Part shown: positions 37,582-64,000 of the stretch, piece by piece
Layout of the letters: each line of letters begins with the position of its first letter
How positions within the stretch are numbered: position 1 is the stretch's first letter
Assembly: GCA_038534095.1 (NCBI GenBank)
Contig: JBCAXK010000002.1
Span: 1-64,000 of the forward strand
Direction: 5' to 3'
DNA: 64,000 nt
DNA from: Chlamydiota bacterium
Lineage (GTDB): Bacteria; Chlamydiota; Chlamydiia; Chlamydiales; SM23-39
Made by a program: the position numbers and the translations under genes
The notes under the pieces: generated by a model
What the model saw: only the letters and a program-made list of their open reading frames with translations
Database searches by the model: none
Told to the model about the DNA's origin: nothing

Positions 37582-38780
37582 GAGACGCTCCTTACCATCG
37601 TAAACAGCTCCTGGAAAAAGAGCCAAAACGCGAAAAAGGCGGAGCAAAGAAGAGCCGCTCTTCCTCCAAACGCGCGGTAATTTCCAGGAAATTTTTGCCG
37701 GTAGCGACCATTCCAAACTGCAAAAACAGGCAAAATGCCAAATAGGGTCATCGTGCAAACGCCCCCTGCAAATTGTAAGGCAGCGTAAAATACTTCGGGA
37801 TAGGTGAGGGCAAAAAGAAGGCTAGGCAGTAGGACAACTGTCACCAAAAAAACGTGATTCCTCGAGGATAAAGGCATGTTTAGCCCATCGGCTAAAAAGT
37901 GGACCAAGGTGAGCGCTTGCGGTACAAACGAGGTTACAATCGCAAAAAAAGCAAACGACTGCGCGTAAGAGCCAATGCCAAAGTTTTTCAAGGCATAGCT
38001 CGCCTCCTCTTTTCTTTGGTAAATGGCCAAAATCCCCTCTTCTCCCCCAAAAGGAACGAGTCCCAAAAGGAGCCCTTGCCAGAAGAGGTATACAAAAAAG
38101 ACGATCAAACTACCACCGAAAATGGTTTGTTGCATCTTTCTCCAATCCTGATCTACGTAAGCGCTAAGGGAGGGAATCATATTTTGAAAACCAAAGGATA
38201 AGACTAGAACGGGCAGGGAAAGGGACCAAAAACTCCACTCCACATGGAGCCAGTTGCCCATATCTGTCTTTGGAGCCCCTAAAAAAACCATGAAAAAAAA
38301 ACTGTAGCCAAGTCCCACCATCAAAAAACGGTTCATCCCATCGATGAAGCGGGTGCCTAAGAAAAGAGCGCCTCCAAAAATGAGAACGAACAAGACAGAA
38401 GCTAACGTAGGGGGTAAAAAAATACCGGCAAAATGGTTGATGAAGCCAGAAAAGATTTTAGAACTGGCCGAGATGTAGGCAATCAGAAGGGAGTAGAATA
38501 AAAAGAGGTAAGAAAAAAAGCAGATCCGCTTTCCCCAAATACCCAGTCCTTTTTCCAGCATGGAGAGCAAATTGACTTGGTTAGGAAACCAGGCGTTCAT
38601 TTCTAACACCAAACAGGCGCTGTAGGTCATAAAAGCCCAAGCAAGCAACAGGCTCAAAAGAGAAGGAAAAAATCCGCTCAAACCTGTTAAGATCGGCAGA
38701 GCGAGCATGCCGGCGCCAATGCAGCTTCCCGCTACAAGGAGCGAGCCTCCAAGAAGGGGGTAGGAGGGAGCCGCCTTCAT
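37578..38780 (-). CDS. tyrP: Aromatic amino acid permease (TyrP/Mtr family), copy 1
   Basis: LVAGSCIGAGMLALP, LFYSLLIAYIS, SFGFQNMIPSL. Confidence 0.88.
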   Translation of the reverse strand: MKAAPSYPLLGGSLLVAGSCIGAGMLALPILTGLSGFFPSLLSLLLAWAFMTYSACLVLEMNAWFPNQVNLLSMLEKGLGIWGKRICFFSYLFLFYSLLIAYISASSKIFSGFINHFAGIFLPPTLASVLFVLIFGGALFLGTRFIDGMNRFLMVGLGYSFFFMVFLGAPKTDMGNWLHVEWSFWSLSLPVLVLSFGFQNMIPSLSAYVDQDWRKMQQTIFGGSLIVFFVYLFWQGLLLGLVPFGGEEGILAIYQRKEEASYALKNFGIGSYAQSFAFFAIVTSFVPQALTLVHFLADGLNMPLSSRNHVFLVTVVLLPSLLFALTYPEVFYAALQFAGGVCTMTLFGILPVFAVWNGRYRQKFPGNYRAFGGRAALLCSAFFAFWLFFQELFTMVRSVS

Positions 38781-40405
38781 CGGGGGTTTTCCAGCTTTTC
38801 TTGCTTCCGTTGCTCCTGATTGAGCCGTCCTAGTGGGTATCCATCGTAATCGACAAATTTGAAAAAGCGCTCAAACTGGGGCTCTTTTTCACAAACCTGA
38901 CGGGCCATTTCTTGGGCAAGGTAACGGTAACTTGGGTGGCCTGCTGGAGAGGATCGCAGCTCACACATCCATTGCAAAGCTCGAAGATTCACATGGAAAT
39001 ACCAGCGGACATTGTACCCCATTGGGACAATGTACTGCGCCTCTTCGGGCAATTCTTGCGCAATCATTTTGTAGGCCTCTTTTGCCCGATTCATCGCAGA
39101 GATGTAGGGCTTTTCTAGGTCGGTGTGCAAAATTTCTGGGGGGATGAAGTAGCCATAATTGCACGTGAGGAGCTGCCGCTCTTGGGTGAGGAGTCTGTGC
39201 CTATGTAGATCTCTATAGACCCCAAAATCGGCTACAATTTCAAAGGTGTAGTTCGCATGTTCTAAGGCTCTCGGTGACTTATGTCGCCGATTTTCACGGG
39301 GCATCGACGCTGCGTCTAAAATCCTTAAGAGGTCTTCTTCTCCCATCTCCTTACAAAGGGCTGTCAGCTGCTGCAAAGAGGCTGAGGAGCCTTGAAACAG
39401 AAGCGCAGCGGCTACTTTGTACACCGCTTCTTTATCGTAATCGGCGAGAGTAACCCCAGGGCGGCTTTGCTGGCTGATCTCTTCTGTGTGGCTCGTAGAG
39501 AGCTGCAAAAGCTCTTTTTGCATCTCTTCATGAAACTCAGCGTTTGCTTCTTGGTATTTATGGCCTAGAGCCGCCCTACGAATGAACGAGGGGATCACTT
39601 TGCTAAGCTCGGCTTGCGTCGATTTACCAAGCTCACTGAGCTCAGCTAGGTTGTTCCTATGCATTTTTTGTATCAAGGTTTCAAAAAAGCGCCCATTGCC
39701 GAAAACGCCCATATTCGTGAGGGTGGAGGCAGGAAGAAGTCCGCGCAAGCAGTCGAGCACCTTTGCTCGTAAAGAAGCGTTATAGGCCAATTTTGAAATG
39801 TGATGATTTTTCGGGAATTTTTGTTCGATCAGTTCGGTCAGTTGAGGAATGAGTAGCTTGTAGGTATCGAACAAATGGTCGCATGTCTCCAAGTACAAGT
39901 CTCGGTAGGCGGAGGTGAGGAGAATCGGTTCTTGGTAGTAAAGGTACTCACCGTTGATTTTTTGATCAAAATAGATGTACCTTGTCGATTTTTCTAAAGG
40001 AGAGCCTCCAATCCGAGCATCTTCGATCACTTTGGCCGCAAGCATCGATATATTTTCTATCGCAAGGTGCGCTCCCCCCAGTTCTGCGATCGAATCATCT
40101 CCGTAACCATCTAAAATACGATCGTAAAAGTTTTTTGCTTTTTTGATGGCAATCATTTGCTCATCTTGTTGGGGTGACTTACACCGACCTGCAATCTCCT
40201 GAAAAGAGGTATCCTCGTTCATGATGAACTCTTTGAGTAGTAAAGAACGGAGTCCCAGAGTCGACCTGGAGTAGCGCGAAAAAAGAGCGCCTTTGATCAC
40301 TTCGGGAAGGTTCCTTAGCACAAAAACATTGCTTGTTGTGCTCGACACAAATTGGTGTAAAATTTTAATCTGACTTTCAGAGAATTCTTCGTAATTCTGC
40401 GTCAT
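38777..40405 (-). CDS. thyX: FAD-dependent thymidylate synthase, long chlamydial two-domain type
   Basis: GALFSRYSRS, YGDDSIAEL, LEKSTRY, YRDLHRHR, ELRS; 542 aa. Confidence 0.9.
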   Translation of the reverse strand: MTQNYEEFSESQIKILHQFVSSTTSNVFVLRNLPEVIKGALFSRYSRSTLGLRSLLLKEFIMNEDTSFQEIAGRCKSPQQDEQMIAIKKAKNFYDRILDGYGDDSIAELGGAHLAIENISMLAAKVIEDARIGGSPLEKSTRYIYFDQKINGEYLYYQEPILLTSAYRDLYLETCDHLFDTYKLLIPQLTELIEQKFPKNHHISKLAYNASLRAKVLDCLRGLLPASTLTNMGVFGNGRFFETLIQKMHRNNLAELSELGKSTQAELSKVIPSFIRRAALGHKYQEANAEFHEEMQKELLQLSTSHTEEISQQSRPGVTLADYDKEAVYKVAAALLFQGSSASLQQLTALCKEMGEEDLLRILDAASMPRENRRHKSPRALEHANYTFEIVADFGVYRDLHRHRLLTQERQLLTCNYGYFIPPEILHTDLEKPYISAMNRAKEAYKMIAQELPEEAQYIVPMGYNVRWYFHVNLRALQWMCELRSSPAGHPSYRYLAQEMARQVCEKEPQFERFFKFVDYDGYPLGRLNQEQRKQEKLENPR

Positions 40406-40589
40406 CTAGTCCTCATCTCATGGATCGTTTTCTACAAGACTGCCATAGTCTTCCAGCAGGGATCAAGGAAAATCCTACAGAAAAAAGCTGCTCAAAATTT
40501 TGCAGACAGGTAAAAGAAAATTTACCAGGAGGTTTTCTTTGAAATTGACGCCAGGCGCTCCCTTTATCCCCCTTTCAAAGGAAGGGGCA

Positions 40590-41564
40590 TTGACCATTCC
40601 AACAAGACTTCGTAGGCTCCGCAGCAAAAAAACTCTACGCGGCCTTGTCCAAGAAACACTCTTAACAAAACGGGATTTTGTCCTCCCCCTATTCTTGATC
40701 GAAGGACAGGGGAAAAAAGTTCCTATTGCCTCGATGCCTGGCATTTTTCGCTATTCGATCGATCAGGCTCTTGAGCAAATACAGGCCTATTTTGATCAAG
40801 GAATTGGAACGTTTGCCCTGTTTCCTTGTTTACCTCATGAAAAGAAATCTTGGACGGGAAAAGAAGCCTTTACCAAACATGCCCTGATCCCCAAAGCGCT
40901 GACTTTTTTCAGGCGGTTTGTGCCAGAAGCGTGCCTCATCGCCGATGTGGCTCTTGACCCCTTCACTTCTCATGGACACGACGGCATTTTAGGGGAAAAT
41001 CACGAAGTGCTCAACGATGTAACGGTCCACTATTTAGCAAAAATGGCTCTCCTCTACGCAAACTCGGGCGCAGACATGGTGGCGCCTAGCGACATGATGG
41101 ATGGTAGGGTGCTTCGGATCCGTCAGATGTTAGATGAAGGCAAGTCGCACAATACTGCGATCTTAGCCTACAGCGCAAAGTACGCCTCCTGCTTTTACAA
41201 GCCTTTCCGTGAAGCCTTAGATTCCGCTCCTGCTGGGGATAAAAAATCGTACCAGCTAGATCCGGCCAATCAAAGAGAGGCTTTGCTCGAAGCGCATCTC
41301 GATGAAGAGGAGCACGCCGATATTCTCATGGTGAAACCTGCGGGAATGTATTTAGATGTGATTCAAAGCATCCGAAAACAGACAAAAAGACCCTTGGCTG
41401 CCTATCACGTGAGTGGGGAGTACGCCATGGTGATGGCCGCGCACCAGCAGGGGATTTTGGTCGCGAAAGAGGCATTTCTTGAAATCCTTACGAGCATCAA
41501 AAGGGCGGGAGCCGACCTGATTTTTTCCTACGCTTTAGATCATGTTTTGGGCGAGTTGCTTTAG
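40590..41564 (+). CDS. hemB: Porphobilinogen synthase (type without zinc-binding cysteines)
   Basis: RLRRLR, DVALDPFTSHGHDG, APSDMMDG, YSAKYAS, MVKPA, AYHVSGEY. TTG 40590 follows a purine-rich RBS. Confidence 0.96.
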   Translation: MTIPTRLRRLRSKKTLRGLVQETLLTKRDFVLPLFLIEGQGKKVPIASMPGIFRYSIDQALEQIQAYFDQGIGTFALFPCLPHEKKSWTGKEAFTKHALIPKALTFFRRFVPEACLIADVALDPFTSHGHDGILGENHEVLNDVTVHYLAKMALLYANSGADMVAPSDMMDGRVLRIRQMLDEGKSHNTAILAYSAKYASCFYKPFREALDSAPAGDKKSYQLDPANQREALLEAHLDEEEHADILMVKPAGMYLDVIQSIRKQTKRPLAAYHVSGEYAMVMAAHQQGILVAKEAFLEILTSIKRAGADLIFSYALDHVLGELL

Positions 41565-54001: not shown

Positions 54002-55018
54002 ATGCACCGGAGTCTCTACCGGATGATCCATTTCTCCCTTCTACTTTTCAGCTTCCCTTTGATCGGAAGTTTGGAAACGAAGACAGCAGATCCATCTTGC
54101 TTAAGAGATGGTTGGAACGCCCCTGCGCAGTTTGATCAAGGAGATCTCGGCGGATATCTGACTAAGACTTTCCTGATCTGGAAAGTCGAGGGTGACTCTA
54201 CTGCTCCAGGTGTTGTGGTCCTTGGCTCGGGAGCAGAAGAAATTCTCTTAGAAAAAGAGTACCGACTCGGTTTTCATCTAGGAGGGGGCTACCACTTGCC
54301 TTATGGCAATTGGCAGATCGAACTCGGCTACTCCTATCTCCCAATGAAAGCAACTTCCCAAGAGGTGCAAAGCGACTCTTCTGCGGAAGAAATCGCGCCG
54401 TTTTGGGCAAAAAAGAGCCAAGACGCCCCCTCTTTCCTATCGGAAAACAGCGTCTGGACATTCTCTGCCCAAAGCGTCACCGCCTCACTTCTTCGGCGCT
54501 ACTACGTGGGCCAAAAACTCCTTGTTGCGTTAGAAACTGGATTAAGATCTTGGATTGTACAGCAAAATTATGACGCGAAGTACGCAGGCGTAAATGCCCA
54601 TCTAGAAACCCATTCCAAGGCGCATCTTTGGAACCTTGGGCCAAGAACATCGCTCCATTCTGACTGGTTTATTGGATCGGGACTGCGCTTTTTTGGTCAT
54701 ATCGGCGGCTCAATTGGTTATACAAAAGCAGGAATCGATCACCTTGAGACAAAAGACGAAAACGCTACCTTATTTTCTCTAAGCGACGAGCGCCCTTTTC
54801 TCGCTCCGACAAGCGAAATAGGAGTTGGTCTTGGTTGGGGGGCTTCTTTTCTAGAACGCGGCTTACATCTAGATGCCTCTCTTCGTTATGATCTCTTTGT
54901 TTTGTACGGACAAAATGTGATGAAATCCCTCCTTGAGCCCTTTGTAGAAAATTTTTCTCGTGGGAGCTATGATGTCTATTTGCACGGATTTTCGTTGATG
55001 GTTAGGAGTGATTTTTGA
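54002..55018 (+). CDS. MOMP-like (Lpg1974/Legionella MOMP family) porin 1
   Basis: Signal peptide, amphipathic beta strands, LGPR motif, C-terminal YLHGFSLMVRSDF. Confidence 0.8.
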   Translation: MHRSLYRMIHFSLLLFSFPLIGSLETKTADPSCLRDGWNAPAQFDQGDLGGYLTKTFLIWKVEGDSTAPGVVVLGSGAEEILLEKEYRLGFHLGGGYHLPYGNWQIELGYSYLPMKATSQEVQSDSSAEEIAPFWAKKSQDAPSFLSENSVWTFSAQSVTASLLRRYYVGQKLLVALETGLRSWIVQQNYDAKYAGVNAHLETHSKAHLWNLGPRTSLHSDWFIGSGLRFFGHIGGSIGYTKAGIDHLETKDENATLFSLSDERPFLAPTSEIGVGLGWGASFLERGLHLDASLRYDLFVLYGQNVMKSLLEPFVENFSRGSYDVYLHGFSLMVRSDF

Positions 55019-56118
55019 AAAAGAAGGAGCCTACTTTCCGAGCGCACATGATCTACCTCTACGTACTTTTTAGCTTGCTTCTATGCCCTAGGGCGCAAGC
55101 CCAAGAAGAGTCTTTGATCCTTTCAAATCGCTGCCTCTTATTAGATCCTGAGTACTCTGCGCAAGAAGATTGGATTCCAGGATACAACAAACCAGCCAAT
55201 ATCGATGTTTGGAGCGATTACGACAAGCTGTTTACGAGCGGATCTTTTCTCTATTTTCAAGCCATTGAAGATGGCCTTGCTTTAGGCCTACTGCAACCGA
55301 GTGCACAGACCCTATTTGACCAGAGTCCAAACAGCTCCCTTCTAACCATAGAGTTTCCCTTTCAGCCTGGTTTCCGGGTCGGGTTGGGACTCCACCTAGG
55401 CGATCGAGATTGGGATTTTTATGCGGAATATACCTGGTTTCGGCAGCAAGAAGCTTCCGCTTTTTCCGCTCCAAGTGGAGGGAGCATTGAGCCTTTATGG
55501 CTTTACGATCTTGTGTCCGAGGAACCAGCTACCTCCGCTATTAGCGACTGGCACCTTAGTCTAGATATGATCGATGGAGAGCTTGGCACTTCCTACTACC
55601 TCTCTGCAGAAAATGTCGTACGCCCTTTTTGGGGATCGCGCCTTGCCTGGATCTCCCAAACTTTTTCTCCTGCTTATACGATTTCTGGAGAAACGGTGGA
55701 GGCGCGCAATAAGATCCGTTCTTGGGGTCTGGGCTTAAGAGCGGGCGTCGATACAGAGTGGCACGTCGGCCCAAACACAAAACTGCTTGCCAATGGCGCT
55801 TTTTCCAGCCTTTACACCCACTACAAACTATCGGTAGAACAACAAAGCTTTGAAAACCCTCAGCAAACAGCTATTGCAACATATGAAACTCCCGATTACC
55901 TACGTCCTCAATACGAATCTGCGTTCGGGCTTGCTTGGGGCAACTATTTGTTCAACAGCCTTTGCCACTTTGAGATCCGAGCTTTGTACGAACTGCACGT
56001 GTTCTGGAATCAAAATATTTTTGGATCGGCTTTTGGGGGCATTGTCAATCGCTCCGCAAAAGGCTCCACAAATTTGTACTTACACGGCTTAACCGTCAAG
56101 ATGCGACTCGATTTTTAG
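55015..56118 (+). CDS. MOMP-like porin 2
   Basis: YNKPA, GSFLYFQA, PGFRVGLG, WGLGLRAG, C-terminal LYLHGLTVKMRLDF. Start may be ATG 55048. Confidence 0.85.
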   Translation: MKKKEPTFRAHMIYLYVLFSLLLCPRAQAQEESLILSNRCLLLDPEYSAQEDWIPGYNKPANIDVWSDYDKLFTSGSFLYFQAIEDGLALGLLQPSAQTLFDQSPNSSLLTIEFPFQPGFRVGLGLHLGDRDWDFYAEYTWFRQQEASAFSAPSGGSIEPLWLYDLVSEEPATSAISDWHLSLDMIDGELGTSYYLSAENVVRPFWGSRLAWISQTFSPAYTISGETVEARNKIRSWGLGLRAGVDTEWHVGPNTKLLANGAFSSLYTHYKLSVEQQSFENPQQTAIATYETPDYLRPQYESAFGLAWGNYLFNSLCHFEIRALYELHVFWNQNIFGSAFGGIVNRSAKGSTNLYLHGLTVKMRLDF

Positions 56119-56131
56119 CAGGTATTTCCTT

Positions 56132-57151
56132 ATGCATTTCCACTTCCTACTCTGTTTTCTCCTCTTGGCAAGCTCTTTTGAAGGCCTTACTACAGACTTT
56201 CCTCAAGACTGTTTGAGCAACTACAACGCTCCCTATGAGGAGCAAGGAACCCTTCAGGGCCGCATTTCGGGATCATTCACCTACTGGCAACCGCTAGCAG
56301 AAGGGCTGGAAGTTGGGCTGATTTCTGCAAACGCCTCCTCTTTTACCCCTAGCAGCAAAAGCCGCGTTGTCCAAACCGACTTTTCTTACGAGCCAGGCCT
56401 GAAACTTTCCTTGGGATTAGGAGGCTTTCCCGATCACTGGGAAATGCTCCTAGGCTACACCTATTTTCGCTCTAGCTCTTCGACAAAAACATCGGTCTCG
56501 AACCAGCAAGGAATTTACACCAACCGATTTCAAGAAGCAAACGCCGTCTTTGCGAAAAGCCTAGTTTCGGTATGGAAAATGCGCCTACAATTCTTAGATC
56601 CAGCTCTTTCTCGTACCTTCTACGTAGGACGTCACCTTCTATTTACCCCCTCTCTTGGAGGAAGAGCCTACTTTTTGCGCCACGAGCTAAAAACCCAGTA
56701 TCAAGGAGGGGAGATCACAGCAAATCATGGGGAGGCTTCACAAGAAGCAAAATCCCGATCTTGGGGATTAGGACCCAAAATGGGTCTCCATACCCACTGG
56801 TTACTCCCTGCTGGATTCTCTTGTGAAGGGGGACTTTTCTATAGCATGGCTTTTACAAGATACCATATTGAAATCGAAGAAACGCCCACGTCCACAAATG
56901 CGCCTTTTGTATTCGATCAAGTAAACCGGACATTTCGTCCGATGTATGACCTCAATTTTGGGATTGAGTGGTCCTCTTCCTTTCCAGGCTCTTACGTCCA
57001 ATGTGGTTTTTCTTTGCTCTATGAGTTTTGTGTATTAAAGAACCAAAATGTTCTTTCAAACGTTTTATCAAGCCCACAATCCCGCCCTTTTAGCTCCCTA
57101 AATGATCTCTACTTACATGGACTCACGCTATCTGGGATCGCTAAGTTCTAA
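56132..57151 (+). CDS. MOMP-like porin 3
   Basis: YNAP, GSFTYWQP, PGLKLSLG, WGLGPKMG, C-terminal LYLHGLTLSGIAKF. Confidence 0.85.
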   Translation: MHFHFLLCFLLLASSFEGLTTDFPQDCLSNYNAPYEEQGTLQGRISGSFTYWQPLAEGLEVGLISANASSFTPSSKSRVVQTDFSYEPGLKLSLGLGGFPDHWEMLLGYTYFRSSSSTKTSVSNQQGIYTNRFQEANAVFAKSLVSVWKMRLQFLDPALSRTFYVGRHLLFTPSLGGRAYFLRHELKTQYQGGEITANHGEASQEAKSRSWGLGPKMGLHTHWLLPAGFSCEGGLFYSMAFTRYHIEIEETPTSTNAPFVFDQVNRTFRPMYDLNFGIEWSSSFPGSYVQCGFSLLYEFCVLKNQNVLSNVLSSPQSRPFSSLNDLYLHGLTLSGIAKF

Positions 57152-59237: not shown

Positions 59238-60275
59238 TTAAGTGGAAGCTGCCGCGGGAACTCTTGGCTGCAACTTCGCAAAAATCGCCTTTTCAATCGC
59301 TTGGGCGAGCTCAGGTTTTTTTTTCAACTCTGCTCGAACCGCTTCCTTGCCCTGTCCGAGGCGAGTATCTTGCATGCTAAACCAAGCTCCTTTTTTATCA
59401 ATGATCCCCATCTCTACCCCAACGTCAATCAAAGATCCTGCGTGGGAAATGCCCTCATTAAACAGAATGTCAAATTCGGCTACCTTGAACGGGGGACCCA
59501 TTTTATTTTTCACAACCTTTGCTTTGGCTCGAAGACCGTTGATCTCTCCATCATTCCCTTTTTCGCCTGCTTTCATTTTTGTACTGCGGATGTCAATACG
59601 CACAGAAGCGTAAAATTTGAGAGCACGGCCTCCCGTTGTTGTTTCTGGATTTCCAAACATCACACCAATTTTTTCCCGTATCTGGTTGATGAAGATCGCG
59701 CAGGTATTGCTTCTAGCGAGGCTAGCTGTTAGCTTGCGAAGAGCTTGGGACATCATCCGCGCTTGCAACCCAACGTGAAGATCACCGATCTCCCCTTCGA
59801 GTTCATTTTTTGGGACAAGAGCAGCGACAGAATCGATGACAATGACATCGACAGCATTGGACCGGGCAAGCATTTCGGCAATATTTAACGCTTCTTCTCC
59901 AGAATCGGGTTGAGAGATCAGGAGATCTTTTGTGTTGACCCCGATGATCGATGCGTAGGCTGGGTCTAGGGCATGCTCTGCGTCGATATAGGCCGCCGTG
60001 CCCCCCTGTTTTTGTGCATTGGCCACAATGTGGGTAGCTAAGGTGGATTTTCCAGAAGATTCGGGGCCATAAATTTCAACAATTCTTCCTCTAGGCACCC
60101 CTCCGATTCCTAAAGCTAAGTCGAGCGCAATGGCACCTGTTGGAATCACAGAGACCGTTTGATCTGTCATTCTTGCGCCTAGTGACATGATGGCTCCTTC
60201 TCCAAACTGCTGTTTGATGTGTTGAACAACGAGCTCTAATGCTTTTTTCTTTCCGCCGTTTTCCCGATCTTTCAT
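59238..60275 (-). CDS. recA: Recombinase A
   Basis: [46 protein letters not shown]. Confidence 0.99.
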
Positions 60276-61424: not shown

Positions 61425-62282
61425 TTAGCCGGGGAAGGAGAGCGCATCTGCCATGTAACACAGCTCTTTGGTATCTATAGAAAGCTTTTTTAAGAGCGTG
61501 CGAAATGCCTGGAGATCATGCTCAAGCCGCTGTAACGCGCTCTTTTTGCCCAAGATAGACGCTAGATTGCTTTCGGTCGCGTTAGTAGTATCTTGCTCGA
61601 GGTCCAATAGATCATCGCGCAACTGAAAGGCTCTTCCAAGGTGAAGGGCGAGAGCCTCCACCTCACTCAAACAGGCAGGATCTCCCCCACCAAACAGCCA
61701 TCCACACACGAAGGCGATATTGAACAATGTGACCGTTTTTTTCTCAGTGATCGCATCTAAGGTGGCTACCGTCTGATCTGGGGGAAAGAGATCAAAAAAC
61801 TGCCCCCCTGTAGCTCCAAAAATGCCGGCGGCTTTTGTGACAGTCTGTAACGCTTTCATCGATAGCGTATTTTGCGTAGAAGAAGATACTGGGAGCTGTG
61901 ATCCATTTTTATGGACGTATTCGTAACCAAGGGAAATCAACGTGTAGCTTGCTAAGATGGCAACGCTTTCGGGATAAACGTGATGCAAACAGGGCTTTCC
62001 CCTCCGTTTGGTTTCATTATCCATACAGGGAAGATCATCTGCAATGAGAGATGCGCTGTGAAAACACTCAACCGCTAAAGCCGATGATAAAACAGGATAG
62101 TTTTTTCCAAGAGCGTCCCCTATGAGCATCACAAGAAGGGGGCGGACTCTTTTGCCGCCGCTGAGTAAACTATACTCAACAGCCTCCCGAAGCTTAGAGG
62201 GAGCGCCAAGCTCGGAGATCAGCGCTAACATCCCCTCTTCCACCTCCAAGAAGGTTTGTTGTAGTCGCTCTTTAACCTGCAT
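61425..62282 (-). CDS. Polyprenyl synthetase (second copy, possibly GGPP synthase type)
   Basis: GGKRVRP, ASLIADDLPCMD...RRG, GQFFD, KT, FQLRDDLLD. Confidence 0.88.
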   Translation of the reverse strand: MQVKERLQQTFLEVEEGMLALISELGAPSKLREAVEYSLLSGGKRVRPLLVMLIGDALGKNYPVLSSALAVECFHSASLIADDLPCMDNETKRRGKPCLHHVYPESVAILASYTLISLGYEYVHKNGSQLPVSSSTQNTLSMKALQTVTKAAGIFGATGGQFFDLFPPDQTVATLDAITEKKTVTLFNIAFVCGWLFGGGDPACLSEVEALALHLGRAFQLRDDLLDLEQDTTNATESNLASILGKKSALQRLEHDLQAFRTLLKKLSIDTKELCYMADALSFPG

Positions 62283-62928
62283 GATTTGCCTGCATGTTTT
62301 TCGGGAAAAAAGTCCCTTTTACCGTTGTTAAAGGGGGGATTTTGGACTGTTTTCCAACAAGAGCGCCCGGGTTGAGTACAACGTTGCACCCTACCTGCGC
62401 CTGATCTCCAATGATCGCCCCAAGTTTTTTTCGTCCCGTAAACACCTTCTCATTGCCGATCTGAAAATAGACCTCTTTTTTATCGAGGCGCACGTTCGCG
62501 CAAATGGTTCCAGCGCCGAGATTGACCCGCTCTCCAACTAAGCTATCGCCAACATAGGAAAAATGGGCCGCCTTGACCCGTTTAAAGAGGAAGGAACCCT
62601 TTACCTCAGTCCCATGTCCAATCACCGAATAGGGGCCAATATACGACCGTTCTCGCACATAAGCGCCAGGGCGTAGTTCCACATGATCAGCGATGATGCA
62701 CGGACCTTGAAGAGTCACTCCAGGATCGATGTTGCAATGCTCTCCAACAAAGATCGTCTCTGGATGTTTGAGAACAACGCCGGCAGGGAGATCGGTCAGG
62801 ATGTTGCCCATTTGGGCAAATGCATCGAGATGTTCAAAACGATCAAAACAGCGCCAAAAAGGTCCTGGTTGAAAAAGGCTTTCCCAGGAATCGATCAAGC
62901 GCTTCGAGAAAAAATTAGACAAATCCAT
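62272..62928 (-). CDS. GlmU C-terminal-like hexapeptide-repeat acetyltransferase
   Basis: Left-handed beta-helix repeats; HFSYVGDS, NLGAGTICAN, KLGAIIGD; no uridyltransferase domain. Confidence 0.85.
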   Translation of the reverse strand: MDLSNFFSKRLIDSWESLFQPGPFWRCFDRFEHLDAFAQMGNILTDLPAGVVLKHPETIFVGEHCNIDPGVTLQGPCIIADHVELRPGAYVRERSYIGPYSVIGHGTEVKGSFLFKRVKAAHFSYVGDSLVGERVNLGAGTICANVRLDKKEVYFQIGNEKVFTGRKKLGAIIGDQAQVGCNVVLNPGALVGKQSKIPPLTTVKGTFFPKNMQANHAG

Positions 62929-63007
62929 GATTCCCAGTATATCGAGCGAGTGAAAAGATCGGAAGTAAGAAGAAAGTATTTCTCTATATCTCTTCTTCTT
63001 CTGGTCT

Positions 63008-63161
63008 TGTGGATCTGTTCATAACTCCCCTTTTTCCTAGACAAAATCGGTGTTCATAACTCTGTTCATAAACTGATCATAACCCCCCGGTTATGAACAG
63101 AGAAAAGTTATGAACAAAGTTATGAACAGAAAAAACCGGGGTTATGCACAAATCTTCCACA
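63008..63161. promoter_or_regulatory. Array of DnaA-box-like 9-mers; candidate chromosomal replication origin
   Basis: Six exact TTATGAACA copies (minus: 63016, 63051, 63063; plus: 63091, 63108, 63120), TTATGATCA (minus 63074), TTATGCACA (plus 63142), and degenerate AGATCCACA (minus 63008) and TCTTCCACA (plus 63153). Confidence 0.7.
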
Positions 63162-63193
63162 ATCGAGATTTCCCCCTTTTTTTAGGAAAAAAG

Positions 63194-64000
63194 CTAGGGC
63201 CGTTTTTGGATAAACAGCCAAAAAGCCCAGGAGCAAAGAACGCCTCCCAACGTGAAGGGGACGCGCTCTGCTGCGTAGGTAAGCAGGGCCGCTAAAGGGG
63301 CAAGTCCCATTGCAAAAGATTGGATCGACTGGCTAAGTCCAAGAACTTTTCCCTGCATGTTCTTATTCGCCTTTGAAGAGATCATCTCGGTACAAACAGG
63401 CCAAGCGACTCCAGAAATCATTACAGACGCTCCGACAAGCGCCATGAACACAAGCGGTTTTTGGGGAAAAATGATGAGAAAAGCGCAAAGGCTGAACAAG
63501 AGAAGGCAGCTCCATAAAACGGAGCGGTTATGAAACCATTGCAAACAGGGTTTGGTTAAAATGCCAGAACCGATCCCCCAACAGATCCCTAAAAATGCGA
63601 TGAAATTCCCTAACTCTGATGTGGAAAACCCAAACGCAGTGACAGCGAGAATGGGGGAAAATTGGAGAACCACATTCCAAGCGAGAAGAAAAAGAAAGTA
63701 GATCAGATAGAGCCGCTTGATGTTGGGAGCGCGGAGGGCCGTCGCAATATTTTTGAACCCTTCACTTAAGTGAAATTTGATCTCTCGATTTTTTACAAAA
63801 GGCTCATTGAAAAAACAGAAAACAAACAGATAATTCAAGAACGTCATGAGCCCGCTAATCCAAAAAGGGAGGGCTAAGAAGAAGTAGGGGGAAAGGGTAT
63901 GATCCGATAACTTCCCTCCTAAATAGGCTCCGAAGATAAACGCGCTTCCAGCTACAAGAGCCATATGCCCAAAATGGGTCAATTTTCGACCACTTTTTTC
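63194..64000 (-). CDS. MFS transporter, TetA/DHA1-like (5' part outside the window)
   Basis: Frame open to the window end; multiple TM segments, QGKVLGLSQS motif. Confidence 0.8.
   Translation of the reverse strand, partial: EKSGRKLTHFGHMALVAGSAFIFGAYLGGKLSDHTLSPYFFLALPFWISGLMTFLNYLFVFCFFNEPFVKNREIKFHLSEGFKNIATALRAPNIKRLYLIYFLFLLAWNVVLQFSPILAVTAFGFSTSELGNFIAFLGICWGIGSGILTKPCLQWFHNRSVLWSCLLLFSLCAFLIIFPQKPLVFMALVGASVMISGVAWPVCTEMISSKANKNMQGKVLGLSQSIQSFAMGLAPLAALLTYAAERVPFTLGGVLCSWAFWLFIQKRP

Follow-up and report, generated by a model that had tools for sequence, protein, structure and literature searches.

A probable chromosomal replication origin shared across Chlamydiota, with variant DnaA boxes and predicted TCT trios

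We conclude that an array of variant DnaA boxes in an intergenic gap of a Chlamydiota genome is the chlamydial chromosomal origin, oriC, with a probability of about 0.95. This reading rests on the GC-skew minimum in relatives, the conservation of the layout throughout the group and the overlap with origins predicted in DoriC, and the original prediction of a candidate oriC at this site is supported by all three. The window, by which we mean the whole stretch of 64,000 nucleotides that was analysed (C2:1–64000), belongs to a genome of 1.6 Mb in 87 contigs that is 96.6% complete (G000). A fuller account, in which DnaA filaments form on TTATSAACA boxes and on TCT trios, with two DnaA paralogues probably in different positions, is in our judgement very likely. 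Our verdict is that the element is a real, phylum-wide oriC and that its predicted TCT trios and complementary paralogues are the part worth following.

The array lies in a gap of 265 bp (62929–63193) and its boxes span 154 bp (63008–63161), as confirmed by a check of the sequence. Ten related 9-mers, five pointing left and five pointing right, were all present at the places and in the orientations originally proposed. Start-to-start spacings are 8, 35, 12 and 11 bp among the left-pointing boxes and 17, 12, 22 and 11 bp among the right-pointing ones, so that the proposed distance of 11–12 bp between neighbours occurs twice in each half; it is also the dominant spacing in relatives. The leftmost site, on the minus strand, is the tandem box proximal to the DNA unwinding element (DUE), AGATCCACA (63008–63016), which has a degenerate 5′ end and keeps CCACA; the upstream tandem box, TTATGAACA (63016–63024, minus strand), follows. 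These are the counterparts of Bacillus subtilis boxes 7 and 6 and the predicted sites of paralogues B and A, respectively. A 26-bp spacer of conserved length (63025–63050), made of a T-tract and then an A-tract, is a candidate bend site for the single HU/IHF protein, for which the genome has one gene. The left array (63051–63082, minus strand) consists of boxes at 63051 and 63063 (TTATGAACA) and at 63074 (TTATGATCA), 11–12 bp apart, with conserved offsets of 43–46, 54–57 and 65–68. Where a centre near 63086 between opposed boxes had been proposed we found CCCCCCGG (63083–63090), of which the length is roughly conserved and the sequence is not. The right array (63091–63161, plus strand) has three copies of TTATGAACA (63091, 63108 and 63120), TTATGCACA at 63142 and a terminal TCTTCCACA at 63153; its conserved offsets are 82–86, 100–103, 112–114, 122–126, 134–138 and 145–148. 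Among the ten boxes, only that at 63142 matches TTWTNCACA exactly, as expected from the original prediction.

Six of the 36 exact copies of TTATGAACA in the genome lie within 63016–63128, and nowhere else in the 1.6 Mb does any 9-mer occur so densely within 300 bp. Six copies of any 9-mer did not arise in 2000 dinucleotide shuffles of the gap (maximum five, in two shuffles). Scanning the genome with a box matrix gave eight sites at the array against four or fewer in any other 160 bp, so that the genome-wide count suggested as a check returned one large cluster only. Such a single cluster, with DnaA-type boxes that are oriented and helically phased, is what is expected of a bacterial oriC.

We examined the conservation of the element in 54 anchored genomes, comprising 30 glmU-like loci (the best of the matches to the glmU-like neighbour, which was found in 56 of 61 genomes), 14 of 30 loci derived from a 17-nt tandem pattern and ten further loci. 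The other 16 pattern-derived loci were dropped, 15 because they lacked the element (mostly coding sequence) and one as a duplicate. The 17-nt pattern alone missed most Chlamydiaceae origins because the tandem spacing there is 9 bp, and a looser TCT–TGTGG pattern, present in 192 of 205 genomes, went unused because of too many chance matches. The surveyed genomes are related, and the counts that follow are therefore not independent. Comparison of the region upstream of glmU, as originally suggested, revealed a common order in all 29 relatives: an AT-rich tract, (TCT)n, a TGTGG box, a TGTTSATAA box, a spacer of about 27 bp and a left-pointing and then a right-pointing array (displaced in L017 and L030). 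The tandem and the TCT run were found together in 29/29 fetched glmU-like loci of relatives and at 6/6 Chlamydiaceae hemB loci covered in full. Boxes occupy fixed offsets in the 54 elements, with same-direction spacings mostly of 11–12 bp (98 pairs) and, in 36 pairs of like orientation, a distance of 35–38 bp from the tandem box to the start of the next; at the matrix cut-off used, only 37 of 52 elements have all left-pointing boxes before all right-pointing ones. The consensus of 366 boxes, called with a matrix seeded with the upstream boxes of the tandem, is TT(A/T/G)T(G/C/A)AACA. At position 6 the counts are A 299, G 41, C 21 and T 5, which bears out the proposal that A replaces the C of the canonical DnaA box; C is retained only in the DUE-proximal and terminal boxes and in that at 63142. 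The DUE-proximal box keeps CCACA with a degenerate 5′ end in nearly all 54 elements.

When 185,579 species genomes were scanned for the exact pattern, at least 122 stretches matched, and the titles of matched records include Chlamydiae, Chlamydia, Waddlia, Simkania and Parachlamydia. Among the 80 matches listed, 77 have at least three array boxes outside the search pattern, 53 carry chlamydial titles, five are titled Verrucomicrobia and four name other phyla. All five Verrucomicrobia-titled matches and the Bacteroidetes-titled match among those listed have chlamydial-type flanks, mostly the glmU-like gene, and are therefore probably chlamydial contigs; one of the three remaining other-phylum-titled matches listed has no array. 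Complete chlamydial elements occur under the titles Bacteroidetes, Ignavibacteriaceae and Acidobacteriota (L259, L287 and L321); the chlamydial glmU-like gene beside L259 makes it likely that such contigs were mislabelled or are contaminants. The unwinding module is present twice or three times, at distances of 0.3–10 kb and in direct or inverted orientation, in several genomes (L128 in G052, L195 in G225 and L209/L218 in G099), with further multi-copy cases at the same distances in L053 (G187), L052 (G163), L056 (G149), L274/L275 and L278/L279. These repeats suggest duplicated or bipartite origins.

The element lies within 1.4 kb of the negative-to-positive GC-skew minimum in seven of nine genomes with long contigs, and within 20 kb in the other two, on skew sampled in 15–20-kb stretches. 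In G052, a single contig of 2.64 Mb, the skew is negative from 0.65 to 2.07 Mb and then positive, with a local minimum at 2,070,143 and the element at about 2,070,390. The minimum and the element lie at 287,767 and 288,243 in G189, at 1,000,488 and about 1,000,900 in G138, at 467,683 and 466,360 in G033, at 144,932 and 144,198 in G060, and at 1,173,367 and 1,173,358 in G068. G099 has its minimum at 519,802 and copies of the element at 510,667 and 520,790, the second being the one that coincides. The curves of the remaining two genomes are flat or noisy: in G193 the trough is flat between 2,345 and 2,364 kb and the minimum lies 20 kb from the element, which is at 2,344,467, and in G016 (63% complete) the distance is 17 kb. 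G225, represented by a 15-kb stretch only, was left out of this count. The cumulative-skew check thus held in most relatives, but was less clear in the genome under study. There, no negative-to-positive switch on contigs of at least 26 kb is stronger than that at C2:63,000, but the same contig also switches from positive to negative near 23 and 76 kb, so that its own skew is only suggestive. The contrary switches (window position ~22800 and C2 position ~76000), for which inversion and mis-assembly are candidate causes, probably reflect inversions near the origin. Fourfold-site skew on C2 was discarded because it was confounded by gene strand.

The genes around the element vary between families. 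Here it is flanked on the left by a glmU-like gene with the acetyltransferase domain only (62272–62928, minus strand), which lies outside the element and marks it in environmental chlamydiae, and on the right by an MFS transporter gene (63194–64000 and on to C2:64429, minus strand) with terminator-like hairpins at 63198–63219 and 63243–63258; the gene on this side differs from genome to genome. Of the genes expected near the origin, the glmU-like gene, ispA (61425–62282) and recA (59238–60275) are close, but thyX (38777–40405), hemB (~40500–41564) and a greA-like gene (~43.7–46.0 kb) are 17–24 kb away. In Chlamydiaceae the element sits between hemB and thyX (glmU is 11 kb away in G138), and none was found upstream of glmU in G138 or G068; the skew switch therefore tracks the element and not the gene. 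By eye, the DoriC origin stretch of Chlamydia trachomatis D/UW-3 is the exact complement of part of the element at L214. The gap upstream of hemB in our genome, 22 kb from the array, has no boxes, and the hemB rule fails here. A plasmid origin was considered and rejected on the lack of a blastn match in PLSDB. Elsewhere in the window (54002–57151), three tandem paralogous ORFs of 338–367 amino acids have signal peptides and a C-terminal Phe; we take them to resemble outer-membrane beta-barrel (MOMP-like) proteins.

These data bear on readings of the array other than an origin. An operator array for a transcription factor controlling glmU–ispA or other genes would explain its position upstream of the glmU-like gene in 29/29 environmental loci and the single or paired boxes upstream of mraZ and of a signal-peptidase-like gene, described below. 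That idea is largely refuted and very improbable, since the Chlamydiaceae element lies at the skew switch between hemB and thyX, the genome has a single large cluster and 62880–63260 contains no sigma-70-like promoter. A structured RNA, MITE or cruciform might be suspected from the folding of 63005–63165 (z = −8.1), yet the median best-strand z across the 54 elements is −2.25, with only 15 below −3. It is box positions and not pairing that are conserved, the element is single-copy in the genome, and no Rfam match comes near its gathering score (four matches, all far below), which makes this the least plausible reading of all. Beyond the window, 5 kb from the array, lie parA-like and pGP6-D-like ORFs (C2:67912–69438), in a stretch of pGP6-D-like, parA-like and thrS-like genes (C2:67912–71373) named by their sequence features. 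Partition sites cluster near origins, and a centromere-like site serving these genes would fit such a neighbourhood; it would, however, leave unaccounted for the unwinding-system geometry, the phase-locked trimer run and the melting minimum set out below, and the boxes retain eight of nine DnaA-box positions. We therefore regard a partition site as highly unlikely and retain the origin reading.

The left flank of the array is its least stable part, in agreement with the AT/TCT-rich stretch originally noted there. The predicted DUE (62967–63002) is 72% AT and consists of an AAGAAG run, an AT-rich core and a TCT run. By nearest-neighbour estimate, the least stable 30-mer of 62701–63400 begins at 62966 (99th percentile of the window), and among the elements of 54 relatives, 46 have their least stable 20-mer starting 31–50 bp left of the tandem, so that an easily melted AT-rich element adjoins the boxes as in other origins. 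Its right end carries four predicted non-canonical DnaA-trios, 3′-TCT-5′, on the plus strand (62991–63002), 13 bp from the upstream tandem box. On the plus strand, in the 3′ to 5′ direction, the left end of the array reads AATACTTGT CTAGGTGT TCTGG TCT TCT TCT TCT, and the B. subtilis counterpart is AATAGGTGT TTAGGTGT CCGG GAT GAT AAT GAA (PMC8287927). The run is phase-locked to the tandem box: C is found at −7, −10, −13 and −16 in 30, 44, 42 and 44 of 54 elements, and T at −8, −11, −14 and −17 in 53, 50, 51 and 50. Outside the search pattern, C occurs at −16 in 72/76 and T at −17 in 76/76 of the matches listed. As in a canonical basal unwinding system (BUS), co-oriented tandem boxes (9 + 8 bp) lie within 16 bp of the trimers, with a 13-bp spacer. 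The three or more 3′-NAN-5′ trios of the canonical system are absent, since the tract is (TCT)n and A is very rare from −8 to −17; if set in the register of B. subtilis, whose spacer is 12 bp, it would read 3′-TTC-5′, with a disfavoured central T.

We consider the TCT run to be probably a tract of trios bound as single-stranded DNA. In B. subtilis trios, a central C supports strand separation like A, both offering an amine to N187; this tolerance makes the TCT frame chemically plausible, and the suggestion that TCT works like a trio rests on that analogy. A TTC frame, or a motif on the opposite strand, is also conceivable. In the published BUS survey 13 bp is the commonest spacer between box and trio, and the scan required 3′-NAN-5′ trios (PMC8287927), so that 3′-TCT-5′ trios could not be called. 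None of the 30 chlamydial rows compared in Table S1 of that paper uses the TCT run, TCTTCTTCT does not occur in the portion of the supplementary table examined, and the calls in the part of Table S1 compared disagree between near-identical chlamydial strains. Of the 54 elements, 26 have a converging TTCCACA-like box on the far side of the tract, usually between −58 and −62, against a mean of 3.8 in shuffles and 3 in the reverse control; the box is also present in 48 of 80 matches listed, and our genome's element has none. Fully mirror-symmetric tracts, with a TCT run and a TGTGG box on both strands, occur at G070 C1:176–242 and G240 C127:49357–49425.

All 30 relatives queried encode two full DnaA matches, as the original prediction held for chlamydiae, and these fall into two clades (quick tree, SH-aLRT 100). 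By gene order, paralogue A is presumably DnaA2/CT275 and paralogue B DnaA1/CT250. We compared residues by alignment to the B. subtilis DnaA of 8BTG, with domain IV in Escherichia coli numbers, using 31 rows for A and 30 for B (one of these a domain IV fragment; that of G001 was left out). Paralogue A (KTHS) has D433T, R399, N187, R202K and T225F in 31/31 each, together with T435S, loss of P423, retention of E183 and E228, and an invariant K222R. Its Walker B and both ATP sensors are intact. Paralogue B (RDHS) has R399Q and D433 in 29/30 each, keeps H434 and always has S, T or A for H439; R202, K222, T225 and E228 are present in 29/29, N187 in only 1/29 (mostly E or D). It has lost sensors I and II, its Walker B is degenerate, and its arginine finger and domain I motifs are retained. 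The proposed comparison of domain IV thus uncovered complementary invariant changes, D433T in A and R399Q in B. Of the trio-pocket residues (N187, I190, I193, R202 and E228), A keeps N187 and E228, with R202K and T225F alongside, and B keeps R202 and E228. Our genome's own paralogue B is split over the end of C44 and the start of C46, downstream of a yidC-like gene. H439Y is found in paralogue A of all six genomes of family f28 (L065, L098, L099, L101, L111 and L112), in which most tandem boxes read TTWTAAACA at 9-bp spacing, a link that may be lineage only.

In the 8BTG structure, DnaA1 on box 7 uses K222, R202 and E228 and not N187, which is supplied by DnaA2; the arginine fingers face the single-stranded side, that of DnaA1 pointing toward DnaA2 (PMC10721633). 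Paralogue B keeps the residues of such a first protomer and has lost those that a first protomer spares, which would fit that position. The proximal box, degenerate at its 5′ end, may correspond to the loss of R399 in B, and the changed position 6 to the loss of D433 in A. We infer from these sequences a possible scheme of binding, bending, unwinding and assignment of paralogues to boxes. Paralogue A would fill the TTATSAACA arrays head-to-tail, one helical turn apart, like E. coli DnaA on its opposed arrays, and the left array would come to lie at the tandem through a bend in the ~27-bp spacer. Paralogue B, placed like DnaA1 in the B. subtilis structure, would be the first protomer, on the NNTCCACA box, and would offer its arginine finger to A on the neighbouring box. 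Paralogue A would then grow along the TCT strand, where it would capture T and C, and would melt the AT core. A mirror-image module faces this one from the other side of the tract in about half of the genomes; our own genome has no mirror box.

How far the paralogues share the work is a matter of judgement. The residue pattern is compatible with a heteromeric initiator whose second paralogue caps the filament, an idea we hold tentatively. Its strongest form, an obligate heteromeric DnaA throughout Chlamydiota in which a degenerate paralogue caps the filament at the junction of CCACA box and duplex, an active one reads recoded TTATSAACA and 3′-TCT-5′, and many genomes have two facing modules, is more speculative still. 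It is also a real possibility that paralogue A is the sole initiator and B a regulator, for example an Hda-like finger donor that would set off hydrolysis of ATP by A, or a competitor at CCACA boxes that gates firing. B has a degenerate ATP site and a retained finger, as in Hda, and an Hda-like role explains this pattern equally well. B evolves faster (48% against 64% mean column identity) and A retains both faces of the trio pocket; moreover, one DnaA serves the same 9 + 8 tandem in B. subtilis and C. acetobutylicum, so two box types need not mean two proteins. However, domain I motifs and D433/H434 are retained in B, as are exactly those contacts to single-stranded DNA that are specific to a first protomer, and a box with C at position 6 occupies the DnaA1 position in nearly all 54 elements although A lacks D433. 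Another alternative leaves the origin in place and makes the purine strand, 3′-GAA-5′, the functional motif, reached by a far-side filament or by loop-back recruitment, with TCT merely its complement. GAA is a tolerated trio present in the B. subtilis tract (PMC8287927), a mirrored AAGAAG run lies at 62967–62976 and recruitment mechanisms operate in E. coli and T. maritima. Against this, the run locked to the tandem is TCT, on the strand that bears the trios in B. subtilis, conservation is weak for the distal AAGAAG run, which lies ~30 bp away from the boxes, and A has invariant R202K and T225F in the G-reading pocket. We consider a purine-strand motif unlikely and favour trios on the TCT strand.

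Boxes of the array type also occur upstream of mraZ, where 26 loci with a readable start contain 64 against 3.7 in shuffles, and in 19 of the 26 a TTNTGAACA box abuts repeats; such boxes are nearly absent in four loci of other families. In our genome (C26:10855–11000, L251) and in L225–L254 they abut GTGGG-type repeats and are conserved within the family. The adjoining CCCAC repeats look to us like MraZ's own GTGGG repeats, and we therefore set aside their reading as paralogue B sites. The mraZ gene lies within ~3 kb of the paralogue A gene, on the opposite strand, in G000, G020, G033 and G042, an arrangement that might fit autoregulation or a link with division genes. Upstream of a gene of 605 amino acids, which we take to be signal-peptidase-I-like, there are two composite tandems of the form TGTGGAA+TGTTCATAA (C63:5282 and 5433).

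That chlamydiae carry two dnaA genes (PMC4009838), neither at the skew minimum (PMC2878342), has long been remarked, and the literature searched assigned no roles to the two proteins. The element turns the question into one directly testable in vitro with short oligonucleotides and predicts, at the level of residues, the box to which each paralogue binds. It provides a base-pair origin map valid from Chlamydiaceae to environmental families and a 30-bp signature that locates the origin in draft genomes. The supposedly conserved 3′-GAT-5′ trio appears to be replaced by 3′-TCT-5′ across the phylum, with accompanying invariant changes in the base-capture pocket; the nucleobase-capture model thereby gains a natural test. 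If true, the heteromeric scheme would mean a bacterial initiator with a division of labour between subunits, and both DNA codes of the basal unwinding system would have been rewritten throughout the phylum.

Several known systems resemble parts of the element or its initiators. Hda-type regulators consist of an AAA+ domain with a clamp-binding N-terminus and are not known to carry a domain IV. Paralogue B is like Hda and DnaA-related regulators in keeping its finger with a degenerate ATP site of its own, but it is a full-length protein that includes domain I and, above the Pfam cut-off, a DNA-binding domain IV; its match to the DnaA models TIGR00362 and PRK12422 is far better than that to Hda.

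DoriC-derived data already contain the origin locus of cultured chlamydiae and the motif with A at position 6. The tables give the standard motifs TTATCAACA and TTTTCAACA, with A at position 6, for many chlamydial strains (PMC8287927), TTTTCCACA has been proposed for Chlamydiae (PMC2275245), and chlamydial origins are placed next to hemB (PMC4009838). The Chlamydiaceae element agrees with this DoriC/Ori-Finder locus beside hemB (PMC2275245, PMC4009838 and Table S1 of PMC8287927), but the rule fails in our genome. The variant-box headline of the original prediction was right and partly anticipated; TCT trios and the matching of paralogues to boxes formed no part of it. In the openly accessible full-text papers searched, we found no description of the conserved layout, TCT trios or distinct paralogue roles (further background: PMC2533591, PMC7561715, PMC9879097, PMC10225481, PMC9825612 and two bioRxiv preprints). 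In Borrelia, which has the same table motif, domain IV is said to differ; no spirochaete appears among 30 PLSDB dnaA matches listed of 46.

In E. coli oriC, left boxes R1–I2 and right boxes C3–R4 are arranged with an IHF site between R1 and R5M (PMC10316083 and PMC6070618). The chlamydial element is alike in having five boxes each way, closely spaced, and a gap of fixed length after the DUE-proximal site. It differs in its near-identical TTATSAACA boxes, in a gap of ~27 bp with putative HU/IHF binding in place of the IHF site, and in TCT trios in place of the 13-mers of the E. coli DUE. The closest likeness is to the B. subtilis BUS (PMC8287927; PMC10721633, PDB 8BTG), which shares the co-oriented 9-bp and 8-bp tandem, the short gap, the period-3 run on the same strand and the AT-rich tract beyond. 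The chlamydial spacer is 13 bp and that of B. subtilis 12 bp, the trios read 3′-TCT-5′ as against 3′-GAT-5′, and the upstream box, unlike its B. subtilis counterpart, has A at position 6. Chlamydiae further differ from B. subtilis in the converging mirror box across the tract in about half of their genomes and in having two DnaA paralogues with complementary invariant changes.
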